A stretch of 64,000 nt of DNA, from positions 1,452 through 65,451 of the IMG/VR virus record IMGVR_UViG_3300027759_000085, one strand, 5' to 3'. This stretch comes from a virus. Lineage: Duplodnaviria; Caudoviricetes. The notes beneath the pieces are model-generated. The model did not search any database and was not told where the DNA came from. It worked only from the letters and a program-made list of their open reading frames with translations. Position numbers and translations under genes: made by a program. Shown in pieces: positions 133-58,282 of this stretch; the stretch's first letter is position 1; every line of letters begins with the position of its first letter.

Positions 133-300
133 TTATTTTATTGATCTGAATTCGTAAATAAATTTGTTTAGTAATAGGCTGAACATGGTTATAACCATTG
201 CTCCAGACAGATAAGGAGATGATAGTTCTTCTCCATACGATACGGTAGCCATTACAAGCAACACCAATGTAATCATTAAATACCTTTGTAGTTCCTTCAT
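133..300 (-). CDS. small membrane protein (55 aa), not in ORF track
   Basis: MKELQRYLMITLVLLVMATV...; ATGA overlap with the 297..530 stop; two hydrophobic segments. Confidence 0.6.
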   Translation of the reverse strand: MKELQRYLMITLVLLVMATVSYGEELSSPYLSGAMVITMFSLLLNKFIYEFRSIK

Positions 301-530
301 CCTCTGTTTATTTTAAAATCGTTAAATAAGACCTTAGGAGCTACCATTTTAATCTCCATGCGTGAATAATACTCGCTAATAAAATCCATTGCCGTATGCC
401 TATCTATATCAGCTACAGAGCATAATACATTTATTGCTAGTCTGTACTTGCTTTCAGAAGATACTAACTTACTGAAACCTTTGATGCTTTGTGCATACCT
501 GACTAGCTCCTCATATCTGATCTGATCCAT
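297..530 (-). CDS. hypothetical early protein
   Basis: Tightly packed ORF in minus-strand operon. Confidence 0.65.
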   Translation of the reverse strand: MDQIRYEELVRYAQSIKGFSKLVSSESKYRLAINVLCSVADIDRHTAMDFISEYYSRMEIKMVAPKVLFNDFKINRG

Positions 531-705
531 AATAATCTTCTATAACCGAGTTTAATGAATTAGTATCTGTTATGCCAAATTCCTCCTTGATAGACTTGAA
601 TAGCTTGGCTATAAAACGCTTTTCTCTTTGGTCACCACTGCTAAAATACATTGAAGACATCCATCCTATGGTATAATACAATGCTCCACTTTCATCCTTT
701 TCCAT
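511..705 (-). CDS. hypothetical early protein
   Basis: Packed ORF with TAAGATCATG leader. Confidence 0.6.
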   Translation of the reverse strand: MEKDESGALYYTIGWMSSMYFSSGDQREKRFIAKLFKSIKEEFGITDTNSLNSVIEDYYGSDQI

Positions 706-709
706 GATC

Positions 710-901
710 TTAATTGCTTAGTATGTTGATTAATAATAATGAACCGATAATTACTACGTATGTAAGCAAGATGATTAATACTGCTACTGTAGGTAGTGTA
801 TTCTTTTCTTTGCTCACCTCACATGGGTATAATATACACCCATCTGGATATGCCGTGTGGCTTATTTTTATGCTAGTCTTCATCTTATTCTCTATTTTCA
901 T
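710..901 (-). CDS. small protein with C-terminal TM helix
   Basis: Likely start MKIENK at 901; hydrophobic C-terminus. Confidence 0.5.
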   Translation of the reverse strand: MKIENKMKTSIKISHTAYPDGCILYPCEVSKEKNTLPTVAVLIILLTYVVIIGSLLLINILSN

Positions 902-1211
902 CCCATCCACAATTAATACACGATATGTCTCCAGAAGAGTTTTTAATAATATTTTTAGAACCACAATTATCGCAAGATGGTTCTTCTATTAATTCAATGT
1001 TTCGCCAATCACACTCATCACTGATGGCATAAAATATCTTTTCTATTGTGGCTTCATTGTTCAATGCCGTGTCAAGAACATTATACGCTTGTTCATCTGT
1101 ACATTCGTAACGATCTGTTACATCTTGAATAGTCCATAAATTACCTACACAATAACCATATTGCTTCAAGATGGCTTTTGCTTGTTCGATTTCTGTTAGT
1201 TGATTTTCCAT
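885..1211 (-). CDS. hypothetical protein with C-terminal Zn ribbon
   Basis: CDNC...CINC pair. Confidence 0.7.
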   Translation of the reverse strand: MENQLTEIEQAKAILKQYGYCVGNLWTIQDVTDRYECTDEQAYNVLDTALNNEATIEKIFYAISDECDWRNIELIEEPSCDNCGSKNIIKNSSGDISCINCGWDENRE

Positions 1212-1215
1212 GATT

Positions 1216-1416
1216 TTATTTGTCTTTATGATCTTTTATAATTAATTCTTTAAGATTAGATAGTTTTTCTTTGATCCTTGCAGTTGCATCTGATACACAA
1301 ATTCGCTCGTATGCATCTTCGTTCTGCAAATATATGTCTATATCTAGACTAATTACCAATGTGCTCATCTCATCTATTAGCTTTAGTTTTTCTTCCATTT
1401 GTTTAAGTTTACTCAT
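1216..1416 (-). CDS. hypothetical coiled-coil protein
   Basis: Packed ORF. Confidence 0.6.
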   Translation of the reverse strand: MSKLKQMEEKLKLIDEMSTLVISLDIDIYLQNEDAYERICVSDATARIKEKLSNLKELIIKDHKDK

Positions 1417-1627
1417 TAAATAAATCTGTTGATTCTATAACTACAGATACACAAGCAGTCCATACATACCAATCATTATCACCATCTACTTCTAGTATAT
1501 CATTATAAGAATTTATTGCCGATTGTTTTGGATCAGGTGATTCACCTTCTCTGTAAGTCATCCAATAGTCTTCAAACTTATCGGGTTCTGTTCTGTGTTT
1601 TAGCGTAACTGCTACGATGTAATCCAT
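1409..1627 (-). CDS. hypothetical acidic early protein
   Basis: Start reassigned to MDYIV (AAAAACATG leader). Confidence 0.6.
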   Translation of the reverse strand: MDYIVAVTLKHRTEPDKFEDYWMTYREGESPDPKQSAINSYNDILEVDGDNDWYVWTACVSVVIESTDLFNE

Positions 1628-1643
1628 GTTTTTAGGTTTAAGG

Positions 1644-1823
1644 TTAATAATTAAGATCGGGAAAATCACACGGGTCTGATATAAGACCACAGTCTGGACA
1701 TTCTATCTTGTCTAAGTTTACTTCTACTTCGTGCAATACTACTGAACCACAGTCACCACACGTTACAATGTTAATTCCAGATGATTTTATAATCTCTTGT
1801 TGTAATTCTAATTGTGTTTTCAT
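1644..1823 (-). CDS. small Zn-ribbon protein
   Basis: CGDC...CPDC; start at MKTQLE just after the upstream stop. Confidence 0.7.
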   Translation of the reverse strand: MKTQLELQQEIIKSSGINIVTCGDCGSVVLHEVEVNLDKIECPDCGLISDPCDFPDLNY

Positions 1824-1824
1824 A

Positions 1825-2124
1825 TTATTTCTTTTTAAATTGTTCAAACCATTCTGGTATATCAGCTAATACAAAATCAGAATACTCAATTAAAGTTGCT
1901 TCTATTATCTGTTTAACTTCTTCCTCACTATACATTCTTTTAGCTTGCCATTTAGCACCTTGAATAAAGCCAGTTCTATTTTTAGAATATTTATCTGCTA
2001 ATCCATATATTCTATCAGTAGCTTCTTCAAGTGTTTCTTGCTTAAATTCTTCATACAATCCTAGATTCTCATCATATCTCATCATGTCAATTAGATTTTG
2101 TTTTTGTTCTTCTTTTGGTTTCAT
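1825..2124 (-). CDS. hypothetical protein of the ETLEEA/GAKWQ/MYSEEEV modular phage family
   Basis: Motifs QETLEEA, GAKWQAKRMYSEEEV, EWFEQFKKK, recalled from aquatic Bacteroidota phages. Confidence 0.7.
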   Translation of the reverse strand: MKPKEEQKQNLIDMMRYDENLGLYEEFKQETLEEATDRIYGLADKYSKNRTGFIQGAKWQAKRMYSEEEVKQIIEATLIEYSDFVLADIPEWFEQFKKK

Positions 2125-2140
2125 TTTCTTTTAGTTTAAA

Positions 2141-2359
2141 TTATCTGTAAATACCTGCCCAATTTGAGCCTTGATTAGTTATAAGCACTACTTGAGCCTT
2201 TACTAAACTATCATCCTTTAATTCATTCATAAGGTTTGTTGCTCTATCCAGAGCCTCATCATAATCCTTAGCATAAACAAAGGTAGTATAATCAATGTTA
2301 TTTCCTGCTTTATCCTTGAAGAAAGCTTTATATTTCTTTACTCTGCTAACAAGTCCCAT
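2141..2359 (-). CDS. hypothetical early protein
   Basis: Packed ORF. Confidence 0.55.
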   Translation of the reverse strand: MGLVSRVKKYKAFFKDKAGNNIDYTTFVYAKDYDEALDRATNLMNELKDDSLVKAQVVLITNQGSNWAGIYR

Positions 2360-2622
2360 GATCTTAATTCATTTAGTTTTTTACTATTTAATCCTAATGA
2401 CTTGATAATAAACTTAGCTAGTCTACTGTTAACCTTTGGCTCTGTAACGTCATTAGAGCCTATCTGCTGAACGATCTCTGATGGCTCCATACCTAATACT
2501 CGCTTACAGAATTTAACGTCTTGTCCGAGGTAAAAAGCCTTAGTACCTTGACTGGTAGTTACTTCTAGAGTCCAGTTATGATCAAAGCCATAACTTGAAT
2601 TTATTTTAATTTGTGCTTTCAT
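2338..2622 (-). CDS. hypothetical early protein
   Basis: TAAGAACATG leader; FYLGQDVKFC motif. Confidence 0.75.
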   Translation of the reverse strand: MKAQIKINSSYGFDHNWTLEVTTSQGTKAFYLGQDVKFCKRVLGMEPSEIVQQIGSNDVTEPKVNSRLAKFIIKSLGLNSKKLNELRSWDLLAE

Positions 2623-2626
2623 GTTC

Positions 2627-2722
2627 TTATAAGTTTTGAATTGCAGTTAATATTCCGTTAATTATCCATATTAATGTTACTGTGGCTAGTGGCCATTTGA
2701 TCCATTGTGTTTTAGTTTTCAT
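2627..2722 (-). CDS. 31-aa single-TM microprotein, not in ORF track
   Basis: MKTKTQWIKWPLATVTLIWIINGILTAIQNL; AAAGAACATG leader; its stop is the TAA of the next TAAGAACATG. Confidence 0.6.
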   Translation of the reverse strand: MKTKTQWIKWPLATVTLIWIINGILTAIQNL

Positions 2723-2742
2723 GTTCTTTAATTTTAGTGTGT

Positions 2743-2931
2743 TTAATAATTTATCAATAGTCCAATAGCATATTTTATAAAATGTGATACGTCTTTTCCA
2801 CCAATCAAGTAATTGCCCTCACTATTATAAATATAGGCTCTGAATTTTTCGGTAGTCGTGTTGGTTAATTGAAATTCATTTTCATGCTCAAAAATGAAGT
2901 CTGTAATTGCTCTTTTAAGTTCTGTTCTCAT
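2743..2931 (-). CDS. hypothetical early protein
   Basis: Start reassigned to MRTELK (TAAGAACATG). Confidence 0.7.
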   Translation of the reverse strand: MRTELKRAITDFIFEHENEFQLTNTTTEKFRAYIYNSEGNYLIGGKDVSHFIKYAIGLLINY

Positions 2932-2935
2932 GTTC

Positions 2936-3049
2936 TTAGTTTTTTTTACGGTTAATAATGTACTGTGCAATAGACCCAACTATCATTGCTGGTGCTATAA
3001 TGGCAGTAAAGATTACTGCGATGCTGATAAGATACTCTGTGTTTTCCAT
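2936..3049 (-). CDS. 37-aa single-TM microprotein, not in ORF track
   Basis: MENTEYLISIAVIFTAIIAPAMIVGSIAQYIINRKKN; its stop is the TAA of TAAGAACATG. Confidence 0.6.
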   Translation of the reverse strand: MENTEYLISIAVIFTAIIAPAMIVGSIAQYIINRKKN

Positions 3050-3064
3050 GTTTGATTTAAATTA

Positions 3065-3085
3065 ATGGGAGTTATTAGCTCCCAT
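3065..3085 (-). terminator. intergenic hairpin (terminator or processing site)
   Basis: ATGGGAGTT-ATT-AGCTCCCAT inverted repeat. Confidence 0.4.
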
Positions 3086-3099
3086 ATAAGTGTGAATGA

Positions 3100-3465
3100 T
3101 TATAAGTCTATTGCTTCGCCTAAGTTACAGTCATAATAAGCTAACTGCTCATTATCTCGAGCGTATAAGATAGCTTCTGATCTGCTCTCTATATGAATAG
3201 ATACATCTAATACTAGATCATTACCATCGACCCATGCACCTAAAAAAAGCTCCTGATTTTCACCTGATATAATCAAGTCTGCTTTTATCTTTATGTAATC
3301 AGCAATAGTATACTGCAGATTGTTTGGATTATACTCTGATCTAGATTCATGATCTCTGATCGAAACCATAAAACCATAGTCAGGATTAAATTCACCCGTC
3401 AATAGATTGTAACTTGCACCACCAGTATTGATGATTGCATTTTTGAAATTGATTAAATTGCTCAT
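3100..3465 (-). CDS. conserved phage early protein of unknown function
   Basis: GGASY..GFMVS..LGAW..LDVS..EQLAYYD pattern; TAAGAACATG leader. Confidence 0.75.
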   Translation of the reverse strand: MSNLINFKNAIINTGGASYNLLTGEFNPDYGFMVSIRDHESRSEYNPNNLQYTIADYIKIKADLIISGENQELFLGAWVDGNDLVLDVSIHIESRSEAILYARDNEQLAYYDCNLGEAIDL

Positions 3466-3476
3466 GTTCTTAAGGT

Positions 3477-3719
3477 TTAAAAATTAGTGACTAATAAATG
3501 ATTAATATTGATTTGACTTTTAGTTTCAGTGAAATTTATATGGACTTTAAAGTCATTATTTTTCTTGCTGAATTTAGTGTATAGCCTACACTGTAATGCA
3601 TTGATCACCTCATGCTTATCTTTGTTATGAAATAAACAAAGTGAAATAAAACTTGACTGCTTGCACAAGTCTGCATTGAATAAGTTAACGGCAATATGGT
3701 ATTTTCTGCTCTTTGTCAT
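3477..3719 (-). CDS. hypothetical early protein
   Basis: Packed ORF. Confidence 0.55.
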   Translation of the reverse strand: MTKSRKYHIAVNLFNADLCKQSSFISLCLFHNKDKHEVINALQCRLYTKFSKKNNDFKVHINFTETKSQININHLLVTNF

Positions 3720-3754
3720 AAGATTAAAGATTAAATTGTTTATGATTTGATTAA

Positions 3755-4333
3755 TTAAAAATTACTTTGTACGCTAGCCCATATAATAGCCTGATACTCG
3801 AAGCCCTTAAGCCCTAATTTCTTTGCTTTGCTTATTGTAAGGCGTTCTAACTGATCGTATGCTAAATGGCCTAATGATTGTATGGTTTGATTAAAACAAG
3901 CCCTAATATGCCATACATCTACTGTTATTCGATCTTCATCTAAGCTACCTACATTACATACAAAAGAGTAAGTTTTTCTAGATTCATTAGTAATTTTAAC
4001 AGTACCTAATGCAATAGCAAACGCCTTAAATTTATTGGTGTGAAACGTGCTCACTTTAATATCCGTAGGGCTTAATCCGTTCTTTACTGCATTCAATACA
4101 GTGACCGTATCTTTTAAATTTGTAGCCCATTTATTGCGAGGGCTTAAGGCAGAAACTACAGAGGCAATAACATCTGATCCAATACCGAAAATCTGTTCCT
4201 GATCCTTGCAAAATTGATTTGCATTTTTGTACCAATCAAGCCCGCTTTTGATCTGCTCATTTGTAGCTAGATTAAAGTAATGATCTAGATTTTTAGATAC
4301 TTTTGCTAACTGGTTTTTAGTTAATTTTTTCAT
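3755..4333 (-). CDS. HhH-GPD DNA-glycosylase-like phage protein (DUF7178-like)
   Basis: GLDWY, ALSPRNKW, KTYSF, TVDVWHIRA, QAIIW motifs. Confidence 0.7.
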   Translation of the reverse strand: MKKLTKNQLAKVSKNLDHYFNLATNEQIKSGLDWYKNANQFCKDQEQIFGIGSDVIASVVSALSPRNKWATNLKDTVTVLNAVKNGLSPTDIKVSTFHTNKFKAFAIALGTVKITNESRKTYSFVCNVGSLDEDRITVDVWHIRACFNQTIQSLGHLAYDQLERLTISKAKKLGLKGFEYQAIIWASVQSNF

Positions 4334-4337
4334 GTTC

Positions 4338-4493
4338 TTAATTTTTTAAATAGTTAATAATTAAGGTTTTTAATCTCTTTAAATTGGTTTCTGTAAATTG
4401 CTGGTTTCCGTAGCTTTCCGCTCTATATATATTTTGAATAAAATAAATTCCGAAACCTTTATATTTAGCAAAAAATTTTATGTTTTTTTTCAT
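4338..4493 (-). CDS. 51-aa hypothetical protein, not in ORF track
   Basis: MKKNIKFFAKYKGFGIYF...; starts at a TAAGAACATG and stops in the next one. Confidence 0.65.
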   Translation of the reverse strand: MKKNIKFFAKYKGFGIYFIQNIYRAESYGNQQFTETNLKRLKTLIINYLKN

Positions 4494-4517
4494 GTTCTTA
4501 GATTTAAAGATTAATAA

Positions 4518-4742
4518 TTAATAGCTCCACAAAATTAGATCGTTTAAATTGCACCACCTACGGCAATCATTTTCAATTTTGTGCGTCTCATTACAGTAAG
4601 TAGTTAATTCTGTAGGTTGAAAATCATCTGTTACGTCATAATAACGCAAAGTGATTTTTTTATAATCTGCTGGATCGCTCAAAGCAATACCTAAAACTGT
4701 AGTTTGGCCTGATTTGTCAGTGAATAAAAATACTTTTTTCAT
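4518..4742 (-). CDS. hypothetical early protein
   Basis: ORF immediately downstream of the hammerhead cleavage site. Confidence 0.65.
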   Translation of the reverse strand: MKKVFLFTDKSGQTTVLGIALSDPADYKKITLRYYDVTDDFQPTELTTYCNETHKIENDCRRWCNLNDLILWSY

Positions 4743-4760
4743 GATTGTTTAAATTTTTAT

Positions 4761-4811
4761 GGTTAAGACGCTTCACAGCGTTTCGGATATTTAATCCATC
4801 ATCAGTTAACC
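4761..4811 (-). ncRNA. type I hammerhead ribozyme
   Basis: GGUUAA CUGAUGA U GGAU-uaaau-AUCC GAA ACGC-ugugaa-GCGU C UUAACC: complete catalytic core, three stems, GUC cleavage triplet. Confidence 0.85.
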
Positions 4812-5044
4812 TTAAATTGTATTATACCATTCCAATCAGGATGACTAAATAATTGAGGGCAGAAATAATTATCGAAACCATGCTCTTCTAAATCATCAAT
4901 AAAGTCAGCATATAAATCAGCCTTCATTAAATGTACCGTTCCTTTGTTATAAATCTCTACGTGATAATTAGTTTCCATATCGGCATTCCAGCTACCATTT
5001 ACATAAATTTCAATTAGATTATTCATAATGTTTACTTTTTTCAT
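4802..5044 (-). CDS. hypothetical early protein
   Basis: Its TGA stop is part of the hammerhead CUGAUGA. Confidence 0.65.
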   Translation of the reverse strand: MKKVNIMNNLIEIYVNGSWNADMETNYHVEIYNKGTVHLMKADLYADFIDDLEEHGFDNYFCPQLFSHPDWNGIIQFKVN

Positions 5045-5054
5045 GTTTTTAGGT

Positions 5055-5195
5055 TTAAAGATTAAAATATGTTATTAATTCATTTTCTTGTTTATCAGTT
5101 AACAATAAATTGCCGTCTCTGTATAAACTTAATATTTCTGCATCTGTTGGATTATATCCGTATATTTTTTTATGATTTGCTTTAATTTTTTTCAT
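5055..5195 (-). CDS. 46-aa hypothetical protein, not in ORF track
   Basis: MKKIKANHKKIYGYNPTDAEILSLY...; fills an operon gap. Confidence 0.55.
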   Translation of the reverse strand: MKKIKANHKKIYGYNPTDAEILSLYRDGNLLLTDKQENELITYFNL

Positions 5196-5221
5196 TTTCT
5201 TAGGTTTTTAGGTTTATAGTT

Positions 5222-5455
5222 TTAAATGCAAGTATTTGATAGATCAATATCTATATCTTTATAATTTACAGATAGGTATTTATGTAATTGATTTAAATTT
5301 CTAAATGCTCTGATAGTTTCTTTATCGCTCCAACACGTAGAAAAATGATACTCTTTAATAATGGCAATATAATTACCTTTGAATACTTTGCCTTTGTCTG
5401 CTACCAATAATACATTATCGGTTAGCACGTTTTCTTTTAAAATAAATTGAGTCAT
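5222..5455 (-). CDS. first gene of the early operon, hypothetical
   Basis: TAAGAACATG leader downstream of the promoter. Confidence 0.7.
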   Translation of the reverse strand: MTQFILKENVLTDNVLLVADKGKVFKGNYIAIIKEYHFSTCWSDKETIRAFRNLNQLHKYLSVNYKDIDIDLSNTCI

Positions 5456-5494
5456 GTTCTTAAGTTTTTAAAATTGTTAACTGATTTGATGATA

Positions 5495-5527
5495 CAATAG
5501 TAAGGACAAAGAATAATACAATCCAAA
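5495..5527 (-). promoter_or_regulatory. Bacteroidota sigmaA-type early promoter
   Basis: TTTG (-33), 21-nt spacer, TACTATTG (-7; consensus TAnnTTTG). Confidence 0.6.
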
Positions 5528-5537
5528 TTTATTTGCA

Positions 5538-5619
5538 GTTTATAATGATTCTAAATAAGGAAACTGATTCTGGAGCATGGAAACAAAGATTAAGCACGTA
5601 GTTTATAGAGATTCTAAAT
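5538..5619. promoter_or_regulatory. two Fur-box-like palindromes
   Basis: GTTTATAATGATTCTAAAT (5538-5556) and GTTTATAGAGATTCTAAAT (5601-5619) versus palindrome ATTTAGAATnATTCTAAAT. Confidence 0.5.
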
Positions 5620-5957
5620 AGTGTATATATATAAATGCTCCTCATATAGTAAAGAAACATAAACAGAAAACAATATAATAGATAGTATAAAGAGTATACA
5701 TATATATAAGAGACAAAGCAAAGTAGTAAACTAGATAGGTAAAAAATGAGATAGTAATATAGTTAACTGGTTTTTAGATGCATTCAAGGTACTTAATAAG
5801 CTACGTTTAATGATCATTTGAATAACAAAGGGTAAAAATAAGACTGTTAGACTGTAGTTATTCCATCTTAACAAGCATAAACATACACTAACCAACAAAA
5901 ACACAAACCAGCCTTTAAAGTACATTAAACCAACATAGCCAATACCTTAGTGTATTT

Positions 5958-6227
5958 TACTATAAAACTTAGCAAACTTAAAAACCGTGTTTAAACATAC
6001 GTGAATACACCTTTGCACACGGTGGAGACAAAGACTTAGTGTACTTTGCTAAGGATCTTAGTATATAGGATGCATTACCTTACACGTGTAAAGAAAAAAG
6101 AGATACATATCTGCCAGTATACTATATAACGCAACAGGCAAGAGATCAAAGGATCAGAAGGCATTCCTTTATCTGCTGGATGCTAAGAAAGTTAGCAATC
6201 TGGATGACGATGCTAAGATCGTTAGCA
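5958..6227. repeat. four 17-bp palindromic boxes TGCTAA-N5-TTAGCA
   Basis: Perfect at 6181-6197 and 6211-6227; degenerate at 6047-6063 and 5958-5974. Confidence 0.65.
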
Positions 6228-6559
6228 AGGGTGCTGGGTCTGGTGATTCGGGTTATTGAGGGGTATGGGGGTACTGTATTGTATGGTATAACCCCTAGAG
6301 AACACACTCACATCATCCAGGATGTACCCTATACATTTTACGGTACTAAACCCTATTAAATAAAAGAAAGTGTCTTAGAGAGCTTGTATTTAGGTCCTAT
6401 ATATACAATTAAAAATAACAACATATCTCTTAAGCTCTACACGACTGCTTGTACTCCTATAGTTTATATACTAGATGATTCAATCTATTAAACTAGTGTA
6501 TCTAGGTCAAGTTCTCCTAGTTTTGTGTCGTATTTAAAGAGACGTATGTTGTATTGTAT

Positions 6560-6769
6560 TTAATTGTTAGGTCCTAGGAACCATATTAGATTGTTTAGTT
6601 TATCTATCTCATATATGTAGCAGAGGAAGTCTTTATCTCCTGTAGATTCTTTGAATATGGAGAGCTTTTGTTCTTTTATATCGAAGCAGTAGTCATAGAT
6701 ACCATGGTAGTATAGATCACCACCTAGGTTTCTAAAGTCATTAGCTTCTAGTTGAGCTTGTGTGATCAT
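6560..6769 (-). CDS. hypothetical protein
   Basis: Overlapping start/stop with neighbour. Confidence 0.65.
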   Translation of the reverse strand: MITQAQLEANDFRNLGGDLYYHGIYDYCFDIKEQKLSIFKESTGDKDFLCYIYEIDKLNNLIWFLGPNN

Positions 6770-7116
6770 AGTTGATTAGGTATAGCAGAACGATACCATT
6801 CTTTTTTTATTGCAAGATCTAACATTTCTAATAGCTCACTTACAAGATCATCGGTTAATATTGACCATATTTCCTGGAATTTCTCTTCATCCTTTTTCTT
6901 TAATCTTTTATTATCCCATCTCTTTAAGAACTTATAGAACTTACCAAATATAAAATCATCGTTGTCCCAACATAGATCTTGCTCAGGGTATGAAGGGTCC
7001 TTTAAATTATTGAATTCTATCCATGATCCTGAATCAGAATCAAAATCATAATCATATATTATTCTAACTAACTTAATGTTACCTCTGTTGTTCTCTATTG
7101 CTTCTGTATGTATCAT
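6766..7116 (-). CDS. hypothetical protein
   Basis: Packed ORF. Confidence 0.7.
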   Translation of the reverse strand: MIHTEAIENNRGNIKLVRIIYDYDFDSDSGSWIEFNNLKDPSYPEQDLCWDNDDFIFGKFYKFLKRWDNKRLKKKDEEKFQEIWSILTDDLVSELLEMLDLAIKKEWYRSAIPNQL

Positions 7117-7130
7117 AATGATTTATTTGT

Positions 7131-7577
7131 TTAGTACCACCAGTATCTCATGCCATAAGTCTTTCTGTGCCTGCCTTTTTCTCCAGCTAAGAGCACAAAT
7201 AGTCTTCTCCATTCTTTTTCTTCTAGTTCAGTAGCCTTATCAAATATTTTTGATTCGTGTCCACTTAAGTCAACTAGTCTATATCCACCATTTTCTTCTT
7301 TAAATACAGATGATGATGTAAATTCTAGTTTAAGAGCCACCCTGGCTTTTTCTACATAGTCACCTTCTTCTATGGACTGCATAATGTCTATGGTTTCGTT
7401 TATGTTTTTTGTTATATTTTTATAATGAAACGATTCATTTTTAACATTTTGTTCTATACACTGTTTTAATCCCTGTAGAGACCTTCTAAGAATGATTAAA
7501 GAGAACATATAGTCAAAGTTTCTGTGGTTCCATAGCTCTTTCCTAAAGAACCAGATGTTTTTAATTAAGTTTATCAT
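7131..7577 (-). CDS. conserved phage hypothetical protein
   Basis: KNIWFFRKELW...GMRYWW pattern. Confidence 0.7.
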   Translation of the reverse strand: MINLIKNIWFFRKELWNHRNFDYMFSLIILRRSLQGLKQCIEQNVKNESFHYKNITKNINETIDIMQSIEEGDYVEKARVALKLEFTSSSVFKEENGGYRLVDLSGHESKIFDKATELEEKEWRRLFVLLAGEKGRHRKTYGMRYWWY

Positions 7578-8230
7578 ATTATTTGATTTATTAGTGTCAT
7601 GTCTGTAGCTCCATTGCCGTGTATAAAGACAGGAGTTGTATTAGTTTTTAAGTTTATTAGTCTACCATCCTTGTAATCAAAATCATCATCTGCTATATGT
7701 GAGTAAGATTGAAATAAGATACAATTAAAATCTCTAATAATATGATAATCATAATTATTTCTTAAATATCTTCTAGTAAACCATTCTTGATCGTCATCCT
7801 CGTAATTTGGTGGTGAGCTTTCAAATAAATTAATGAATGAATTCCTATTACTATAATATAATCCAGAATTAATGTATTTCCAATCTCCATGATTATTTGA
7901 TGGGTAGGCTACGGCTAATTCTGCTACTGGCCAACAAGCTTTTTCACAAGAAACTACAATTGATGGAGAAAATGGAAGGTTATCATTAAACTCTTCTGGA
8001 GATCCAAGGACAACCACATCGTGAGCATCTACAAACACAAAGCTTTCTATCTGGGGATTGTTAATTAAAAAACTATGGGTCTGTATTAACTTAGTACCAA
8101 AACCTTTCCACTCTGAATCTATGATATATACTTCCCATCCAAACCTCTCTGCAGACTTAGTTAGTCGTTCAACTCCTGGGTGATTAGGTTTATTAGTTAC
8201 AGTTATTATGGTATTTGTTTTCATAATCAT
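7574..8230 (-). CDS. PLOD/procollagen-type GT-A glycosyltransferase
   Basis: FVDAHDVV (DxD), EKACWP, YINSG, DDQ and HGNG motifs of the PLOD GT domain. Confidence 0.8.
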   Translation of the reverse strand: MIMKTNTIITVTNKPNHPGVERLTKSAERFGWEVYIIDSEWKGFGTKLIQTHSFLINNPQIESFVFVDAHDVVVLGSPEEFNDNLPFSPSIVVSCEKACWPVAELAVAYPSNNHGDWKYINSGLYYSNRNSFINLFESSPPNYEDDDQEWFTRRYLRNNYDYHIIRDFNCILFQSYSHIADDDFDYKDGRLINLKTNTTPVFIHGNGATDMTLINQII

Positions 8231-9021
8231 TACTCTATTGGTGTAAATAACTCTCTTGTTCCTGATTTATAGTCGTTTATTAGTTGATGTAACTCACCAA
8301 ACTTAGTAGAAACATAGTCAGACTTAAACTTAAGATACTCAGTATTCTCTCCTGTGTCTATGTGATCTATCTCTATGTGGTTTAAAAAAGCATTACAGAA
8401 CCCAGCTATCTGTGACTTAGCAGATGCAATGGTGTCATCTAAGCCATAGATACCACCTAACTGCTCTAATCCACCTATCTTATCTATTAGCTTGTGGTGA
8501 TACATCTGACAGGTACCCATACAATGGTTTATGATCTCTACTGTATGCCAACTTTCTCCTATGTTATGAGGTATCTGCATTAATTGAGATTGATATCCAT
8601 CGGTTCTGTATGGTGACTCAATAAGATCCTTTCTTTTTAATCCTAAGATACCTATTGGTGGGGTGAGCCTATCTCCTATATTTAATACCTCTTCCATGTC
8701 ATCAACCCAACCTTTTTTATAAACAACTACATCATTGTCCATCTTAATTAGATGCTCACCTGGATTTCTGTGGGACCAAGCTTGATTAATAGCTTTTGCT
8801 GTACCTACGTTTTCTTTATTTGTAATTATTGTTAACCAATACCAATTATTGTATTCCGCTAATACTTCTTTTGTTTCTTTACATGAATCATTGTCAACAA
8901 CTATTAATCTATGCTTATCAAAATCTACATTACCATTAAAAAGATTATCTAATGTTCTTTTTGTGTATTTTGTACGATCATTTTCTACCGTATCATAAAT
9001 TGCCATTGCTATTAAAGCCAT
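8230..9021 (-). CDS. GT2 family glycosyltransferase
   Basis: IVVDNDS, NVGTAKAIN, MDND (DxD), GLDD. Confidence 0.85.
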   Translation of the reverse strand: MALIAMAIYDTVENDRTKYTKRTLDNLFNGNVDFDKHRLIVVDNDSCKETKEVLAEYNNWYWLTIITNKENVGTAKAINQAWSHRNPGEHLIKMDNDVVVYKKGWVDDMEEVLNIGDRLTPPIGILGLKRKDLIESPYRTDGYQSQLMQIPHNIGESWHTVEIINHCMGTCQMYHHKLIDKIGGLEQLGGIYGLDDTIASAKSQIAGFCNAFLNHIEIDHIDTGENTEYLKFKSDYVSTKFGELHQLINDYKSGTRELFTPIE

Positions 9022-13396: not shown

Positions 13397-13519
13397 CAAC
13401 AAATGTACGGATAATATTTAACAATTTCAATACCCAATAACTATTTTTAAATATATTTGTTATTGTCGTTCTATATACCTATATTTGAATTGTATTTTAA
13501 AAATAACATATATAAAAAA

Positions 13520-16359: not shown

Positions 16360-16714
16360 GATAGATAAAAAAGGACTTACCAAGAATCAGCTAGAGTACA
16401 TTACTAAGATAGAAGAAGAGTTAGATTTATTTAAGAACGATGGAGCTAAAAGACTATTGTCTGAGTTGTCTGGTATAGCTGGAGACTTTGCCGATGATAT
16501 AGTTAAAATAAGAAGCGGAGAAGGTGTTGGTGTTTACATTAATGAGAACGCCAACGACAAAATGATAGACAAGGTAATGAAGCTTGTAGATAAGATGGAT
16601 AAGTTTAAGTTACTTGCTCAACTAAGCTCTCCTGAAGAAGAAGTAAAAGAAATTAAAAAAAGTATTAGAAGACCAGAGGACTTAGCATTCAATGTCAACA
16701 AGGATAGATCATAA
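16352..16714 (+). CDS. putative terminase small subunit
   Basis: Helical 120 aa, overlapping the TerL start. Confidence 0.4.
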   Translation: MSKIDKKGLTKNQLEYITKIEEELDLFKNDGAKRLLSELSGIAGDFADDIVKIRSGEGVGVYINENANDKMIDKVMKLVDKMDKFKLLAQLSSPEEEVKEIKKSIRRPEDLAFNVNKDRS

Positions 16715-18704
16715 GTTAATAGAGGGTGCGTTAGAGAAATTTGAAAGACGAAAGATCTGTGGAGAGATAACTGTTGACCTTCCTCAGCCTCCACCATTTA
16801 GGACTATTGATAATTACGAAAAGAAAAAGAAGGACCAGAAATTTAACTACCTTAATATTCCAGATGATATAGATGACCTAATAGATACATTAGGAGATGA
16901 CTTTATTGAACGTGAGTACAATAGGATAAGACACGGTTATTGGTTTTTTAACTACGGTAATCTTGAATACATAACTGGATATCACTACGCATTCCTTAAC
17001 TATATGTACATAGATGGTGAAAAGCCATTGTTTACAGATGCACAAAGAGACTTCTTCTATGCCTGGGATGCTGCAGAGAAAGACCCTACTTGTTATGGAC
17101 TTTGCTTAACTACTCCCAGACGATGGGGTAAGGGTGAAGTATCTATTATTATTGCTTACCTAAGAACTATATTAAATCCATTCTCTCACTGTGGTATACA
17201 GTCAAAGACAGCAGATGATGCTAAGGGTCTGTATTCCAAGCTTGTACAAAGATGGCAACGTATGCCTCAGTACCTTAAACCTATTGATGAGGGTGAATCT
17301 AACCCAAAGAGTGCTCTACGTTTCTTTGAGCCAAGCATAAGAAGCACTAAGATCCAAAGAAAAGAATACAAGAAAGCATTAAACTCCTGGATAGACTTTG
17401 CTGCTACAGTAAAGACTGCATATGATGGTCAGAAGTTAAAGACTTATATATATGATGAGATTGCAAAAGCTGAAGGTATTGACGTAAAGGAGTGTTGGGA
17501 TATTGTTAAGTTCTGTTTAGTTAACGGATCTACTATTATAGGCAAAGCTCTTTTAACTACAACCGTAGAAGATGGTGACTCATTCGAGTCTTCAATTAAA
17601 TACAAAGAAATCTGGGAGCAATCAAATCCTAACTCCAAGCTTGAAAGTGGTAAGACACAGTCTGGGCTATGGAGGTATTTTAATCCTGCGTTTATGGGTT
17701 ACTATGGGTGTGATGATGTTACTGGTGTTTCATTCATTGATGACTACGGATACTCAAGGCAAGAGTTAGCAAAAGAATACATATTAAGACAAAGGATTGG
17801 TTTAGATGACAGGTCCTTAGCTTCAATGAAACGTAAACTACCTTTAACAGTAGAAGAAGCCTTTCAAACAGATGCTAGTCAATGTCACTTCAACGCTATT
17901 AACTTATCTGACCAGCTCACCTACTTAAGAGAGTATGCACCTAAGGGATTAGTAAACAGAGTTACATTCTACAGGAAGACAGATAACACTGTTACTTGGA
18001 GACCAGACCCTAGGGGTAAGTTCCAGATGTGTTGGGATTTCAAAGACCAAGCTCAATCAAATAAAAATACGTTTGAACATGGATTAAGAAAGCCTAATAA
18101 TACGGAGTCATTCGCTATTGGAGTCGATCCATTTGCCTCTACTATTATTACTGGGGACCAAGGCTCAAATGGAGTAGCTTACGTATATAGAAAGGATGAC
18201 ATAAACGATCCAGAAGATAGTGGACTTGTTGTGTGTAGGTATGCAGATAGACCGCCACTTAAGTCTATATTTCACGATCAGATTATTATGATGTGTGAAT
18301 ACTATGGATGTAAAGCTAATTACGAAAGTGATGTAGAGGATTACTATGAATACTTCATTAATAAAGGATATAAGAACTATGTCATGTGGAGACCTAAGTC
18401 TACCATAGATCCCAATAGAAAAAATAAAAAGGTAAAGTACGGTACACCATCTAAGGATCCATTTGCCTTACAGAAACATTTTGACACTGTTTTTAATTAC
18501 GTTGAGCTAAGGTGCGATAAAATATATTTCGAGGAATTAATACTTGACCTTGTAGCATATAAACACGTTAAAAGAACAAAGTTTGATGATACTGTAGCAT
18601 TTGGTATGAGTCTTCTTGCAGGAACAGAAAATGTTAAGGCACAAAAGGATGATGCTCCATTAGTGTTCATGAAATATGCTCAGCCAATTAAGCTTAACTA
18701 CTAA
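16692..18704 (+). CDS. terL: terminase large subunit
   Basis: Walker A PRRWGKG, Walker B YIYDE, nuclease GVDP and DDTV. Confidence 0.9.
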   Translation: MSTRIDHKLIEGALEKFERRKICGEITVDLPQPPPFRTIDNYEKKKKDQKFNYLNIPDDIDDLIDTLGDDFIEREYNRIRHGYWFFNYGNLEYITGYHYAFLNYMYIDGEKPLFTDAQRDFFYAWDAAEKDPTCYGLCLTTPRRWGKGEVSIIIAYLRTILNPFSHCGIQSKTADDAKGLYSKLVQRWQRMPQYLKPIDEGESNPKSALRFFEPSIRSTKIQRKEYKKALNSWIDFAATVKTAYDGQKLKTYIYDEIAKAEGIDVKECWDIVKFCLVNGSTIIGKALLTTTVEDGDSFESSIKYKEIWEQSNPNSKLESGKTQSGLWRYFNPAFMGYYGCDDVTGVSFIDDYGYSRQELAKEYILRQRIGLDDRSLASMKRKLPLTVEEAFQTDASQCHFNAINLSDQLTYLREYAPKGLVNRVTFYRKTDNTVTWRPDPRGKFQMCWDFKDQAQSNKNTFEHGLRKPNNTESFAIGVDPFASTIITGDQGSNGVAYVYRKDDINDPEDSGLVVCRYADRPPLKSIFHDQIIMMCEYYGCKANYESDVEDYYEYFINKGYKNYVMWRPKSTIDPNRKNKKVKYGTPSKDPFALQKHFDTVFNYVELRCDKIYFEELILDLVAYKHVKRTKFDDTVAFGMSLLAGTENVKAQKDDAPLVFMKYAQPIKLNY

Positions 18705-18756: not shown

Positions 18757-21210
18757 ATGTCGCAATCAACATTATACGGATTTCCATCCCCATTACTTCC
18801 CGATCAAACAAAGAATAGTCCAGAGTATGGATTAAAACTTATGAAAAGTGCATATGGGCAATGGATTAATGGATATGGTGGTTTTAGCCAAAAGCAAAGA
18901 CAAACCAGATTTGATTACAATAAAGCTTATGCTCAGGGTATGCAGCCAATGCAGGAGTTCCTTGACTATTTAGATATTAATGGTCAACAGCCATATTCTA
19001 ATATAGACTTTACTCCACTACCTATAGCTATACCTTTATTACAAAGAATCAAAGACAGGTTCAATCAAAGAATTGAAAAGATAAGATGTAACTCTATTGA
19101 CCCAGTTAGTATATCTAAAAAGAATAAAGAAAAAATGGATGCTAAGTTCCGTATGGAATTTAAAGATCAAATTGCTCAGATAGAACAACAGTCAGGAGTT
19201 CAGTTAGAGGATCCAGATGCTTTTACTCCAGAGGATACTGAAGAGTTAGATGTTCACTTTGGCTTTACGTATAAACAACGTGAAGAGGTGATGATGGAGC
19301 AGGGTATTGATCTTGTTTTATATGATAACCAATGGACTGAAACTAAGAACTCTATTCTTGATGATTTATTGATTTATGGTTTTGCTGGAACAAGAACAGA
19401 CATAGATAACAATGGCCGTATTAAGGTCCGTAAAATAAATCCATATAACCTGATTGTTTCTTATAGTGAAAGAAGCGATATGAATGACCTTGAATGGGTA
19501 GGTGAAGTTTTCTATATGTCAATCACTGACGTTAGACAGCAGTATCCAGGAAAGATTAGTGAAGAGGAACTGTTTAACCTATCAAAGAGTATGGTAGGTA
19601 AGTTTAATAATCCTGCATCATTTACATTCACGTGGAACTACCAGTATGCAAATGCTATAGCAAGACCATACGATGCATTTAAAGTACCTGTTCTTCAGTT
19701 GTCATTAAAAACACTTTATAACATTACTTACGAAAAGAATGAAGATAGGTTTGGTAAAACTATATTAGATAAAACAACTAAGTTTAAAGATGGTAAGGAA
19801 TACGTTAAATCTAAGCCATTCTATGTAGAATACGAGGGTGCATGGATCTGTGATACAAACTACCTGCTTCATTGGGGTATAGCCAATAACATGGCCAAGC
19901 CAAATGATAACTTACAGGAATGTATTCTTCCGTACACTATCTATATGTACAACAATAATAGGATGACTAATAAGCCAGTCATTGAAACTATTATTCCTTC
20001 TATTAAACAAATGCAGTTAGCTCACCTACAGATTCAAAAGATTGTTTCTCAGGCAGCTCCAGATGGTTATACTGTAGATATTGCAGGTATGGCTGATGTA
20101 GATTTAGGTAATGGTAAGGGTGCATTACAACCAATGGAGTTAATTCGTATCTATAAACAAACGGGTGTTATATTCTATAAGGGCCAAGTTGATGATACAG
20201 AAGGTAATTCAAGACCTCCTATTACTCCATTAAATGTTCCATTCACAGCTAAACTAGAATCATTTATTAACCTATACAATTTTGAACTAAACAAGTTAGA
20301 AAGAATGCTAGGATCTAATTCGTTAGACCAAGGTATTATATCTAATCAAGCTGTAGGTAAAGGAGTACTAGATTCTGCTAGACAGATTGGTGAGAACTCT
20401 ATTAACTATGTATACAACTCATATCTAAATATATTAGAAAGAACTGCAAAGCTAACTCAAATGAGATTGTGGGATATCCTAGTATTTGGTAAAAAAGGAT
20501 ATGAAGGATATAAGTATGCATTGGGTAGCGATAGAGTAGACTACATCAAACTAGAAGCAGATAGTGAATTTGAAAAGACAAACTTTGATGTTAAGATAGA
20601 AGCAACTATTGATGATAATGCAAAGCAAATGTTAGAAAATAATATTCAGCAAGCATTGGCTCAACAAAGTATCGAACTAGAGGATGCTATACAAATAAGA
20701 CTATTAGATAATCCAAAGGCGGCTAATTACTATTTAGTTTCGGCTCAAAAGAAGAGACGTAAACAAAAAATGGATGATGCCAGGTCAAACAGTGAGATGC
20801 AAATGCAACAAGCCGTACAGGCAGCTCAAGCTAAATCACAAGGAGAACTTCAACTAGAACAAGCTAAGGCTCAGTTTAAGCTTCAACAATACGAAGAAGA
20901 GTTAGAAAATGATAAAGAGAGAGAGACACTTAAATACTTTAATATTCTTAGAGTTAAAACGCTTGAAAAACTATTGGAGCAAGGCACGAGTATTGATGAA
21001 ATGCCTTCGTTTATATTTGATGGTATTGACGCTGTTGTTAAAACTCAGAAACAGATTATACTGGAAGAACTGCAAGATCAAGCAGAGCAACAACAAGCTA
21101 AAGAACAACAGATAGCTGCTCAACAGGAACAACAAATGCAACAGGAAGAGCAAGGTGTTCCTATGGAAGAAGAAGAAATTCCAGAAGAGGCACAGCAACC
21201 AATGATGTAA
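18757..21210 (+). CDS. portal protein (crAss-like)
   Basis: 817 aa after TerL; QTG motif; Q-rich helical barrel tail. Confidence 0.85.
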   Translation: MSQSTLYGFPSPLLPDQTKNSPEYGLKLMKSAYGQWINGYGGFSQKQRQTRFDYNKAYAQGMQPMQEFLDYLDINGQQPYSNIDFTPLPIAIPLLQRIKDRFNQRIEKIRCNSIDPVSISKKNKEKMDAKFRMEFKDQIAQIEQQSGVQLEDPDAFTPEDTEELDVHFGFTYKQREEVMMEQGIDLVLYDNQWTETKNSILDDLLIYGFAGTRTDIDNNGRIKVRKINPYNLIVSYSERSDMNDLEWVGEVFYMSITDVRQQYPGKISEEELFNLSKSMVGKFNNPASFTFTWNYQYANAIARPYDAFKVPVLQLSLKTLYNITYEKNEDRFGKTILDKTTKFKDGKEYVKSKPFYVEYEGAWICDTNYLLHWGIANNMAKPNDNLQECILPYTIYMYNNNRMTNKPVIETIIPSIKQMQLAHLQIQKIVSQAAPDGYTVDIAGMADVDLGNGKGALQPMELIRIYKQTGVIFYKGQVDDTEGNSRPPITPLNVPFTAKLESFINLYNFELNKLERMLGSNSLDQGIISNQAVGKGVLDSARQIGENSINYVYNSYLNILERTAKLTQMRLWDILVFGKKGYEGYKYALGSDRVDYIKLEADSEFEKTNFDVKIEATIDDNAKQMLENNIQQALAQQSIELEDAIQIRLLDNPKAANYYLVSAQKKRRKQKMDDARSNSEMQMQQAVQAAQAKSQGELQLEQAKAQFKLQQYEEELENDKERETLKYFNILRVKTLEKLLEQGTSIDEMPSFIFDGIDAVVKTQKQIILEELQDQAEQQQAKEQQIAAQQEQQMQQEEQGVPMEEEEIPEEAQQPMM

Positions 21211-25518: not shown

Positions 25519-26163
25519 ATGGCAGTTACAACTTACGGATATCTTGCTGAACAAATACTTTCAACCTATTACAAGGGTGTAAGAAGTGATGATAGTTCTT
25601 ATTCATTAAAATACATTGCATCCATGTTGGCACAGGAAGTTGCTTTCATGGCCAGAAAGAATGCATTTGAGAATGGGAACAATGGTGACATTACTTATAT
25701 CAATGATACATTCATTAGTACGTTTAAGAGCTTGGCTGTGGCTACAGATAATATTAGTTTGGAAAAGTACATCGTGCTACCATCTATGCCAACAGCTTTA
25801 CCTAATAACCAAGAGATTGTATCGGTATCATTAAATAGGAAAACAAATAAAACATTTATCCCAATGAAGAACAAGGATAGATTTGCTCAGGCATTTCTTC
25901 CATCTATAAGAGGAGTTGTTTTTTATTACATAGAAGATGGTAAATTATATTTTGATAATCCAGAAAACTTTATATTCACTTCAATTACATTAAAGATGGC
26001 AGGTGCTCTACCAAGTGGTGATATATTGGATGCTCAACTTAATATACCTAAAAACTATGAGACCGAGATTATAGATAAGGTATTAAATAGATTACTTTCT
26101 GTTAACAGATTAGGAAGAGATTTGACTAATGATGGTGACGATATAAATAATAACATTCAATAA
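25519..26163 (+). CDS. tail ring protein
   Basis: Synteny in crAss-like tail block. Confidence 0.6.
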   Translation: MAVTTYGYLAEQILSTYYKGVRSDDSSYSLKYIASMLAQEVAFMARKNAFENGNNGDITYINDTFISTFKSLAVATDNISLEKYIVLPSMPTALPNNQEIVSVSLNRKTNKTFIPMKNKDRFAQAFLPSIRGVVFYYIEDGKLYFDNPENFIFTSITLKMAGALPSGDILDAQLNIPKNYETEIIDKVLNRLLSVNRLGRDLTNDGDDINNNIQ

Positions 26164-26936
26164 TGAGTAGAATTGGACTTAAACAAATTATTGCTGAACT
26201 TATAGACAGCAAGGATTCTAGCTCACATGAGTTTAGAAGAATGTATAATATAGGTGTAAGAGGTGTTCGTGAATTTAACACTGACATTGTAGGAAACTTC
26301 TCTACTAAACTATTAGATGTTAATGCTAATAAAACAGCAGACCTTCCAGAAGATTATGTATCCTATTCTAAAATGGGAGTTATTAATGAAAAGGGAGAGA
26401 TTGTTACACTTAGATCTAATCCTCAATTAAGTAATTATAATATTGGACACTCACTTAACCCTGATAGATTCGAAGGAGTCCCAGGTATTGGAGCTGTATC
26501 ATATCCTGCTATACCATATAACTATCCATATATATACTATAACTTTTTTGTATCTAACCAGTCTTTCAATTTATTTGGTCTTGCTGGTGGTGGACAAGAT
26601 ATAGGTCAATACAAAGTAGATGAGGAGTGTGGAATAATTATCTTTGGTCCTTACTTTAAGTACGAAAAGATTTTACTTGAATATCTTGGTGATGGAATGG
26701 ATAGAGATTGTGATGACTATATGATAGACAGTCGTGCCGCTGAAGCTATGTTAGCTTACATCAGATGGAAGACAGCCCTTGATAACCCTAAGAAGTATGG
26801 ACAAGGGATTATGAGGGATTACAAGCAAGAATATAAGTCTGAGAGACTAAAGGCTAAGATGCGTATAAATAAAATTGTTGTGTCTGAATTTGAAGATATA
26901 CAAAGAATTACCAATAAATTAGCACCAAGATCATAA
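26163..26936 (+). CDS. tail tubular/ring protein
   Basis: LPEDYV, LEYLGDG and AYIRW motifs. Confidence 0.65.
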   Translation: MSRIGLKQIIAELIDSKDSSSHEFRRMYNIGVRGVREFNTDIVGNFSTKLLDVNANKTADLPEDYVSYSKMGVINEKGEIVTLRSNPQLSNYNIGHSLNPDRFEGVPGIGAVSYPAIPYNYPYIYYNFFVSNQSFNLFGLAGGGQDIGQYKVDEECGIIIFGPYFKYEKILLEYLGDGMDRDCDDYMIDSRAAEAMLAYIRWKTALDNPKKYGQGIMRDYKQEYKSERLKAKMRINKIVVSEFEDIQRITNKLAPRS

Positions 26937-37714: not shown

Positions 37715-37717
37715 ACC

Positions 37718-38212: not shown

Positions 38213-38221
38213 TAATTAATT

Positions 38222-52351: not shown

Positions 52352-52413
52352 AACTGATTTGCAAGTGTACGTATATTATTGTATATTTGATTTTTAAAAA
52401 CAAAAATATATAT

Positions 52414-58143: not shown

Positions 58144-58204
58144 ACTTAGAATCATTCTAAATTGTAAATAAATTTTGTAGTGTCAATTACATTATAGATA
58201 TTTA
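58144..58204 (+). promoter_or_regulatory. Fur-box-like palindrome plus promoter resembling the early promoter
   Basis: TTAGAAT-C-ATTCTAA (58146-58160), then TGTAAATAAATTTTG as on the minus strand at 5524-5556; -7 box is weak. Confidence 0.55.
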
Positions 58205-58207
58205 CCG

Positions 58208-58282
58208 ATGTAAATTTTTCATGTTCTTTAGTTAATAATGGGCGAGTATGTTTGGTGGTTCTTACTGCTCGCCCTTATTTTC
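58208..58282 (+). ncRNA. putative sRNA antisense to early-gene start codons
   Basis: TTTTTCATGTTCTTTAG tract followed by a GGGCGAGTA/TGCTCGCCC terminator hairpin and TTATTTT. Confidence 0.55.

Follow-up and report, generated by a model that had tools for sequence, protein, structure and literature searches.

Does the palindrome that stands ahead of both a leftward operon of small genes and a putative small RNA in an uncultured phage receive the iron regulator of the host cell? The DNA in question is a stretch of 64,000 nucleotides (hereafter the window), which comprises bases 1452-65451 of the linear 65,451-bp IMG/VR virus record IMGVR_UViG_3300027759_000085, for which CheckV gives a completeness of 59%. 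It belongs to an uncultured, lytic-type crAss-like phage of Bacteroidota. A previous reading made from the letters without database searches (the sequence-only reading) had taken the palindromes at the two promoters, here called S1 (operon) and S2 (small RNA), for Fur boxes and had placed them together with a phage ferritin in an iron-sensing circuit reminiscent of Fur/RyhB. As judged by comparison with bacterial and phage genomes, the palindrome is probably a site for a Fur-family metal regulator of the host, likely Fur itself, on two phage promoters served by host RNA polymerase. Input of a host iron regulator to both promoters is the best reading because the word is shared with bacteria and recurs in phages lacking Fur, and the phage probably ties the leftward operon and the small RNA to the iron state of the cell. 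The part of the proposed circuit that includes ferritin and a RyhB-like RNA is speculative.

Sequence and layout of the two sites

Both 32-nt strings quoted in the sequence-only reading are present in the window, one on the minus strand ahead of the operon and one on the plus strand ahead of the small RNA (Table 1). The 5' half of this shared module is a 7-1-7 palindrome (TTAGAAT-C-ATTCTAA), which is perfect at site 2 and has one arm mismatch at site 1. A degenerate 30-mer matched only these two sites in the window and none in 100 shuffles, and no third copy of it was found in the whole 65,451-bp record. Chance levels were calculated with a first-order Markov model of the window (G+C content 34.2%). 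The 15-mer palindrome TTAGAATNATTCTAA was seen once as an exact match (0.003 expected) and twice with at most one mismatch (0.11 expected), and the 19-mer ATTTAGAATNATTCTAAAT, of which 18 positions are specified, was found twice with at most two mismatches compared to 0.028 expected. Given these expectations and the shuffles, boxes 1 and 2 greatly exceed what chance would produce. Four 19-mers were seen when up to four mismatches were allowed, with 3.3 expected, and only two good boxes were found in the window by the 19-mer search.

The consensus ATTTAGAATTATTCTAAAT, named in the sequence-only reading as the proposed Fur box of Riemerella, is given in PMC5609570, where it was predicted for Riemerella anatipestifer with RegPredict and backed by gel shifts on four promoters. 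A recount gave the same numbers of matches as before (16/19 for box 1, 17/19 for box 2 and 14/19 for box 3). Box 3, on the minus strand, was claimed as a third, weaker site at 5601-5619. It is real as a duplication, since it forms a 21-nt direct repeat with box 1 (19 of 21 positions identical, 63 bp apart), but its motif score is at chance level. Box 3 is a decayed duplicate of box 1, degenerate as a palindrome.

Both boxes are intergenic. Each is followed after 10-11 nt by a TTTG and, about 20 nt beyond it, by a -7-like element, with inferred transcription starts further downstream. S1 has the order AAATAAA, TTTG, 21 nt and TACTATTG, and the first gene of the operon begins with an ATG at 5455. 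In S2, the TTTG (58174-58177) is followed after 19 nt by GATATTTA, which has two mismatches to TAnnTTTG. The same layout as in S1 was found in a related contig (L010) with TATACTTGTATCAACAAA at the -7 position, and the box of this contig matches all 18 specified positions of the Riemerella-type 19-mer. For the middle genes of the crAss-like Cellulophaga phage phi14:2, bioRxiv 10.1101/2020.03.07.982082 describes an upstream tripartite motif mapped by primer extension and in vitro transcription of P070 and P075 by E. coli RNA polymerase. The phi14:2 promoters of g070, g075, g108 and g110, extracted from NC_021806, consist of an A-rich block, (C/T)TTG, 20 nt and TAnnTTTG, and S1 and S2 both show the features of this tripartite type of host-RNA-polymerase promoter. 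The earlier statement that the palindromes lie just upstream of -33 is correct if the predicted elements TACTATTG and GATATTTA are the -7 boxes. An exact TAnnTTTG (TAAATTTG) is also present inside the module at site 1, at a distance of 16 bp from the box centre, and the S1 promoter is therefore a predicted one.

Four canonical Bacteroidota promoters (TTG-N18-22-TAnnTTTG) were found in intergenic positions of the window, at 13430-13400 on the minus strand and at 13457-13487, 52359-52389 and 62041-62071 on the plus strand. Because of these, the host almost certainly belongs to Bacteroidota, with its RNA polymerase serving at least part of the phage transcription. A scan of 5000-6800 for the sigma-70-type consensus gave 9 matches compared to 11.7 expected, which fits a host in this phylum.

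Upstream of S1, the 1.1 kb from 5456 to 6560 contain no convincing gene, and instead direct repeats (5937-5972/6026-6061 and 6179-6198/6209-6228) and several inverted repeats. L010, too, has a gene-free stretch of this kind ahead of its box, with CTAAAACTTTTAGCA as the repeated unit. Long intergenic regions of phi14:2 are transcribed at a high level, according to bioRxiv 10.1101/2020.03.07.982082.

Table 1. Features of the window discussed in the text (promoter elements and RNA are predicted)
Feature	Position	Strand	Remarks
Shared 32-bp module, copy 1	5523..5554	-	TTAGAATCATTATAAACTGCAAATAAATTTGG, read from 5554 to 5523; palindrome, A/T-rich linker, TTTG; 28/32 positions identical to copy 2
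Shared 32-bp module, copy 2	58146..58177	+	TTAGAATCATTCTAAATTGTAAATAAATTTTG; 3' end is the predicted -33 TTTG
Box 1, 19-mer ATTTAGAATCATTATAAAC	5538..5556	-	7-1-7 core at 5540-5554; 16/18 specified positions of ATTTAGAATNATTCTAAAT
Box 2, 19-mer ACTTAGAATCATTCTAAAT	58144..58162	+	perfect 7-1-7 core at 58146-58160; 17/18 specified positions of ATTTAGAATNATTCTAAAT
Box 3	5600..5620	-	degenerate copy in direct repeat with box 1; inner two bases changed in one half-site, the other intact
Predicted -33 element TTTG, promoter S1	5524..5527	-	layout as in L010 and phi14:2 middle promoters
Predicted -7 element TACTATTG, promoter S1	5495..5502	-	one mismatch to TAnnTTTG; 21 nt past TTTG; 45 bp from box centre
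Leftward operon downstream of S1	133..5455	-	about 20 small open reading frames; DUF7178 at 3755-4333; other functions without assignment
Predicted weak -7 element GATATTTA, promoter S2	58197..58204	+	44 bp from box centre; (G/T)A..TTTA(C) kept in relatives
Putative small RNA or leader	58205..58281	+	intrinsic terminator: stem 58240-58274, T-run to 58281
Phage ferritin, Ftn type, 164 amino acids	37718-38209	+	PF00210, E-value 4e-22; no box in front

The same word in bacteria and in other phages

The exact 19-mer ATTTAGAATNATTCTAAAT, with its centre free, was searched in one genome per bacterial or archaeal species, which gave at least 120 loci. Open reading frames (ORFs) in the 600-nt flanks of 80 of these loci were run through Pfam, and a core iron or oxidative-stress gene was found to adjoin the 19-mer in 41 of the 80. 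Encoded next to it were Fur-family regulators (9 loci), TonB-dependent receptors (9), rubrerythrin (8), iron-sulfur (Fe-S) assembly proteins (4), ferritin or bacterioferritin (2) and Bfd (2), and in one case each HmuY, imelysin, an Fe/Mn superoxide dismutase, a catalase, a peroxidase, VIT1 and a ferredoxin. Fifteen more of the 80 loci carry genes for NqrA (4), cytochrome c (4), CcmE (2), HemA, P-type ATPases (2) and a cation-efflux or solute-binding protein. Since the loci span Bacteroidota, Rhizobiales, Firmicutes, Acidobacteriota and Verrucomicrobiota, the 19-mer is regarded as a general operator word of the Fur family.

Five Bacteroidota genomes contain 29 sites with at most two mismatches, compared to one for the reversed control, and in two of these genomes the Fur-family gene is single. 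Among 401 sampled genomes of the class Bacteroidia, the exact box with G or C at its centre was found 29 times in 25 genomes (control: 0), and 17 of the 25 loci inspected adjoin genes for iron, haem or respiration. Motif scanning in the host clade, which the sequence-only reading had suggested for host iron-uptake promoters, indicates that the same word marks iron-regulon genes of Bacteroidota. A scheme with two regulators, one for uptake genes with A/T-centred boxes and one for respiratory genes with G/C-centred boxes, was rejected, as boxes with G or C at the centre are likewise found at Feo, haem oxygenase, TonB and SufBD genes.

In IMG/VR contigs, the exact 19-mer was found in at least 124 stretches compared to 4 for the reversed control, an excess of about 30-fold. 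A set of 41 viral records, made up of 35 picked for the exact box, the record of the window and five relatives of the window, contains 83 sites with at most two mismatches and one control site. Several of these records carry three to seven boxes. None of the 41 records, with sizes of 19 to 266 kb and a completeness of at least 90% in 25 cases, encodes a Fur-family protein. The Fur-box part of the sequence-only reading is thus supported by comparison, in that the word flanks Fur-family regulon genes and recurs in phages without a Fur of their own. The literature searches made turned up no description of Fur boxes at promoters of Bacteroidota phages, nor of a circuit that involves a phage ferritin.

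In viral contig L252, two boxes are only 3 bp apart, and tandem or multiple boxes, four to seven in single genomes, are present in G412, G414, G418 and G433. A recurrent cassette of box, about 19 nt and TTTGGCTCCCCGGATCC..TTCGTATATTTA was seen in viral contigs L199, L216, L246, L285-L287 and L299, in which the G+C-rich spacer between -33 and the TATATTTA -7 box is conserved.

The site-2 module has its own relatives. The 30-mer is found in 10 other viral contigs, and in three relatives compared in detail it is identical at 30 of 30 positions, with the 200 nt upstream about 60% and the 120 nt downstream 84-88% identical. Homologues of the downstream gene (61-90% identical) were collected from 52 loci, of which 13 have a box with at most one mismatch upstream. 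Three unrelated terminator-ended RNAs occupy the same slot in these 13 loci, and the spacing from box to TTG is constant. As judged from these comparisons, box, promoter and small RNA form a portable cassette of which the box is the most constrained part.

Position relative to the promoter and sign of control

The offset was defined as the distance from the box centre to the first TAnnTTTG. In viral flanks, offsets peak at 5, 24-26, 44-45, 54-55 and 65-66 bp, and after similar flanks had been collapsed, 42 of 71 clusters fell on these 10 positions compared to 6.6 expected for a uniform distribution. The series 24.5, 44.5, 54.5 and 65.5 follows the helical repeat of DNA. The two sites of the window (45 for S1, 44 for S2) and that of L010 (44) fall into the largest viral class, the diverse members of which carry an exact -7 box in the distal position and none in the proximal one. 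According to PMC9723704, TAnnTTTG occupies -12 to -5 in Flavobacterium psychrophilum, which would centre the window boxes near -56/-57.

In Bacteroidota hosts, the box lies over or abuts the core promoter at genes for uptake, haem degradation, Fe-S assembly and Fur (offsets 5-18 and 36-38 bp), with 17-18 bp at TonB-receptor genes. Without exception, host boxes with offsets of 53-56 bp (6 loci) or 65-66 bp (9 loci) stand ahead of nqrA, cytochrome c, ccmE, sdh or ferredoxin genes. The fixed distances at these host genes hint at direct, phase-dependent control of iron-rich respiratory genes. The phage positions are about -36, -56, -66 and -77, of which -66 and -77 are in common with the host respiratory-gene promoters. 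Bacterial loci with respiratory-gene offsets are L037, L042, L083, L090, L331, L332, L334, L336, L337, L342 and L344; their genes include a multihaem cytochrome c and sdh cytochrome b.

In the arrangement proposed here, a 19-bp box, an A/T-rich linker of 10-11 nt, a -33 TTTG, about 20 nt and an imperfect -7 element follow each other. Iron-loaded Fur at the box would modulate the recruitment of RNA polymerase, so that the leftward operon of small genes and, at 58.2 kb, the small RNA or leader would track the iron status of the host. The sign of this control is inferred from position. Activation is favoured because helix phase and a place upstream of -33 are expected of a factor that contacts RNA polymerase; provided that Fur binds, activation in iron-replete cells appears somewhat likelier than repression.

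The fixed positions bear on two further explanations. Boxes might act as Fur decoys, by which replicating phage DNA titrates Fur and derepresses host iron uptake without any role at phage promoters. Copy number climbs during replication, and several phages do have three to seven boxes, but the window has only two good ones, and a fixed, helix-phased distance to -33 and -7 across phages would not be needed for titration; we regard this as the least probable of the explanations considered. Almost as improbable is an architectural element that works without a regulator, as an UP-like sequence, bent DNA or an N4-like hairpin promoter for a virion RNA polymerase. The box is A/T-rich and placed where UP elements lie, and early transcription of phi14:2 is carried out by a virion RNA polymerase with a preference for single-stranded templates (bioRxiv 10.1101/2020.03.07.982082). 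The box is not a general promoter part because it is missing from the four canonical promoters in intergenic parts of the window, and on these grounds, and with the element being a perfect dyad, an UP element is improbable. Dyad symmetry is not a property of UP elements, nor do these accompany Fur genes and TonB receptors. An N4-type hairpin promoter was rejected as well, since the large ORFs of the window include no recognisable polymerase and the box is tied to sigma-A-type elements at phased distances. The crAss-type polymerase motif D-x-D-x-D (searched as D[FYWLIV]DxD) was not found in the nine large ORFs of the window, one of which, of 1814 amino acids, has no family match; as the record is only 59% complete, a virion RNA polymerase could be encoded elsewhere in the phage. 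Early transcripts of phi14:2 share no motif, and the extracted phi14:2 promoters have no such palindrome.

Several observations weigh against host Fur as the binder or against its action as an activator. The reversed-pattern controls cover the site counts only, not the census of bacterial flanking genes. The centre base is G or C in 95 of 115 viral boxes compared to 45 of 123 bacterial boxes, and viral flanks favour CTT...AAG, differences which could mean a different binder, shared ancestry or selection for the best site. No box was found upstream of the gene in three other contigs (L135-L137) that is homologous to the first gene of the S1 operon (57% identity), nor in the up to 330 nt examined upstream of the gene in 39 of the 52 loci related to S2, and the module is therefore dispensable. 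In the 12 of these 39 loci that were read, the gene directly follows a coding region without an intergenic spacer; in L157, a terminator of the L151 type lies about 250 nt upstream of the gene, and a box may be located beyond the stretch examined.

The viral preferences at centre and flanks would also suit an operator of a phage-encoded or other non-Fur regulator, with the likeness to the Fur box due to mimicry or coincidence. Most small ORFs of the window are without family assignment, and a DNA-binding protein may be among them. This explanation is nevertheless unlikely, as 41 very diverse viral records without a Fur gene would have to share one phage regulator, and an arbitrary palindrome would match 17-18 of 18 host positions in about 1 of 1000 cases (an estimate from base composition). 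Moreover, G/C-centred boxes are not confined to viruses, as shown by the host genes named above.

Further objections concern the sign. The -7 boxes of the window are imperfect, and use of the internal TAAATTTG would place the box over the -33 region (offset 16), close to the class that hosts use at TonB-receptor genes, which suggests repression. In Riemerella, the Sdh, cytochrome c and cbb3 genes drop in low iron in wild type and fur mutant alike (Table 2 of PMC5609570), which speaks against Fur as an activator of such genes there. Host Fur may accordingly bind with holo-Fur as a repressor, so that operon and small RNA are on only in iron-starved cells, a RyhB-like logic that we consider possible at roughly a one-in-four level of belief. 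Repression is the classical action of Fur, and it would proceed by blocking the A/T-rich UP-like tract and -33, or by overlap with an alternative promoter that has the internal TAAATTTG as its -7 element. However, relatives of S2 lose the G of the internal TAAATTTG (TTTC) and keep the distal ATTTAC, the window offsets of 44-45 fall on the largest viral peak with its exact distal and absent proximal -7 boxes, and helical phasing of distal sites is unexpected for simple occlusion.

Small RNA, ferritin and known systems

The putative small RNA is followed by a dATP/dGTP-diphosphohydrolase-like gene starting at 58305. It is predicted to fold with a minimum free energy of -30.6 kcal/mol (z-score -4.5) into a G+C-rich hairpin followed by a T-run, and it is conserved in 9 related contigs. 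Like a RyhB-type RNA, the predicted small transcript is structured and terminator-ended. No Rfam family matched it. A duplex scan against 79 phage translation-initiation regions gave its best duplex with the DUF7178 gene (-26.1 kcal/mol, compared to -25.0 for the 5th percentile of shuffled seeds), and ferritin was outside the best eight. The analogy with Fur/RyhB, drawn in the sequence-only reading, was not borne out: it fails on architecture because the box, centred near -56, does not overlap the core promoter, and there is neither an Rfam family nor a convincing target among the 79 phage regions.

The spacer between -33 and -7 in S2-type promoters (58178-58192 in the window; L003, L008 and L151) always contains a short inverted repeat, which varies by lineage (GTAGT..ATTAC, GTAGT..ACTAC, TGTT..AACA or TAGTTTT..AAAACTA). 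It might be a second operator, or a 5' hairpin if transcription starts earlier than inferred.

The phage ferritin belongs with the non-haem ferritins of bacteria (Ftn type; E-values of about 1e-12 for the best matches in the PDB) and is at most 36% identical to proteins of the 401 sampled Bacteroidota genomes, which gives no clue to the host. It is encoded in 4 of the 41 viral records, namely that of the window, that of a close relative and 2 of the 35 others. The supposed link between box and ferritin is not general because only these 2 of the 35 other box-bearing records have the gene, and the co-occurrence across phages that the sequence-only reading had put forward as a check was confined to a few records. 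A doubtful extension would be that many kinds of Bacteroidota phages use host Fur as a positive factor at helix-phased boxes, with infection licensed by iron sufficiency and, in this lineage, the Ftn ferritin later stripping Fur as an early-to-late timer. Ferritin made together with the virion genes would drain Fe2+, Fur would lose its metal, and the promoters would shut.

The ferritin gene lies between the 1814-amino-acid ORF and a 1095-amino-acid ORF with an LPD38 domain, in a block (32270-41506) where crAss-like phages keep virion cargo genes. Pfam and PHROGs assigned crAss-type tail parts (muzzle protein, 26936-30196; ring protein 2, 25519-26160), a terminase (16692-18701), a portal (18757-21207), collagen-repeat fibres and a recombination and replication block from 55 kb onward. 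The fibre-like proteins at 42389-44101 and 44919-48794 contain long collagen triple-helix repeats, and an S74 intramolecular chaperone domain ends both the latter and the next protein of 868 amino acids. Immediately 5' of a 98-nt tRNA-like element, a canonical promoter TTG-N20-TATATTTG starts at 62041 (62041-62178 for both). The element is a weak Rfam tRNA match (62081-62178, 35.9 bits), the sole Rfam match reported, without an ARAGORN call. GenBank phages gave no match by megablast of 4000-9000 or by tblastn of a 448-amino-acid structural protein.

If host Fur acts on the two promoters as proposed, a lytic-type crAss-like phage would read the iron state of its host directly via the regulator of the host cell. 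This device would be in wide use among phages of Bacteroidota, a phylum dominant in gut and marine particle communities in which iron is limiting, and Fur would act directly and in a position-dependent manner as an activator at respiratory genes of Bacteroidota. The box might offer a handle on how iron supply affects the outcome of infection by these phages, and it could serve as a searchable motif for linking uncultured phages to Bacteroidota hosts.

Control of phage genes by host iron repressors is known for DtxR at the tox promoter of corynephage beta and for Fur at the stx1 promoter of Shiga-toxin phages. As in these systems, the operator of a host metal regulator, here a predicted one, is located on a phage-borne promoter. 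The tox and stx1 operators overlap the promoter of a single toxin cargo gene in temperate phages and repress it, whereas the sites described here belong to an operon of the phage proper and to a small RNA, are distal and helix-phased, and have a layout that recurs across phages. In enterobacteria, the Fur box of ryhB overlaps the core promoter. The phage resembles Fur-RyhB in having a small terminator-ended RNA downstream of a promoter with a Fur-type box, but its box is near -56, and three unrelated RNAs occupy the same slot among its relatives. We know of no RyhB-type small RNA in Bacteroidota.

Comparable motifs are the ICE box of Irr in Rhizobiales and the PerR boxes of Firmicutes. In Rhizobiales, the 19-mer stands beside rubrerythrin, bacterioferritin, Bfd and VIT1 genes, and in Streptococcus and Allofustis beside P-type ATPase genes. 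These are other phyla and paralogues, and they bear only on which paralogue might bind in the host.

With phi14:2, S1 and L010 share the order of an A-rich block, TTTG(CAT), about 20 nt and TA..TTTGTATCA; the promoters of phi14:2 have no upstream palindrome, whereas the window adds a Fur-type box 10-11 nt before -33. The likeness to the Riemerella Fur box consists in a 19-bp inverted repeat, the word of which flanks TonB-receptor, HmuY and Fur genes in Bacteroidota. It differs in that the box in Riemerella lies within 100 bp of the start codon of iron-uptake genes (PMC5609570) and that of the phage upstream of -33, and in that the centre base is C or G in the phage, where the site is a predicted one, and T in Riemerella.

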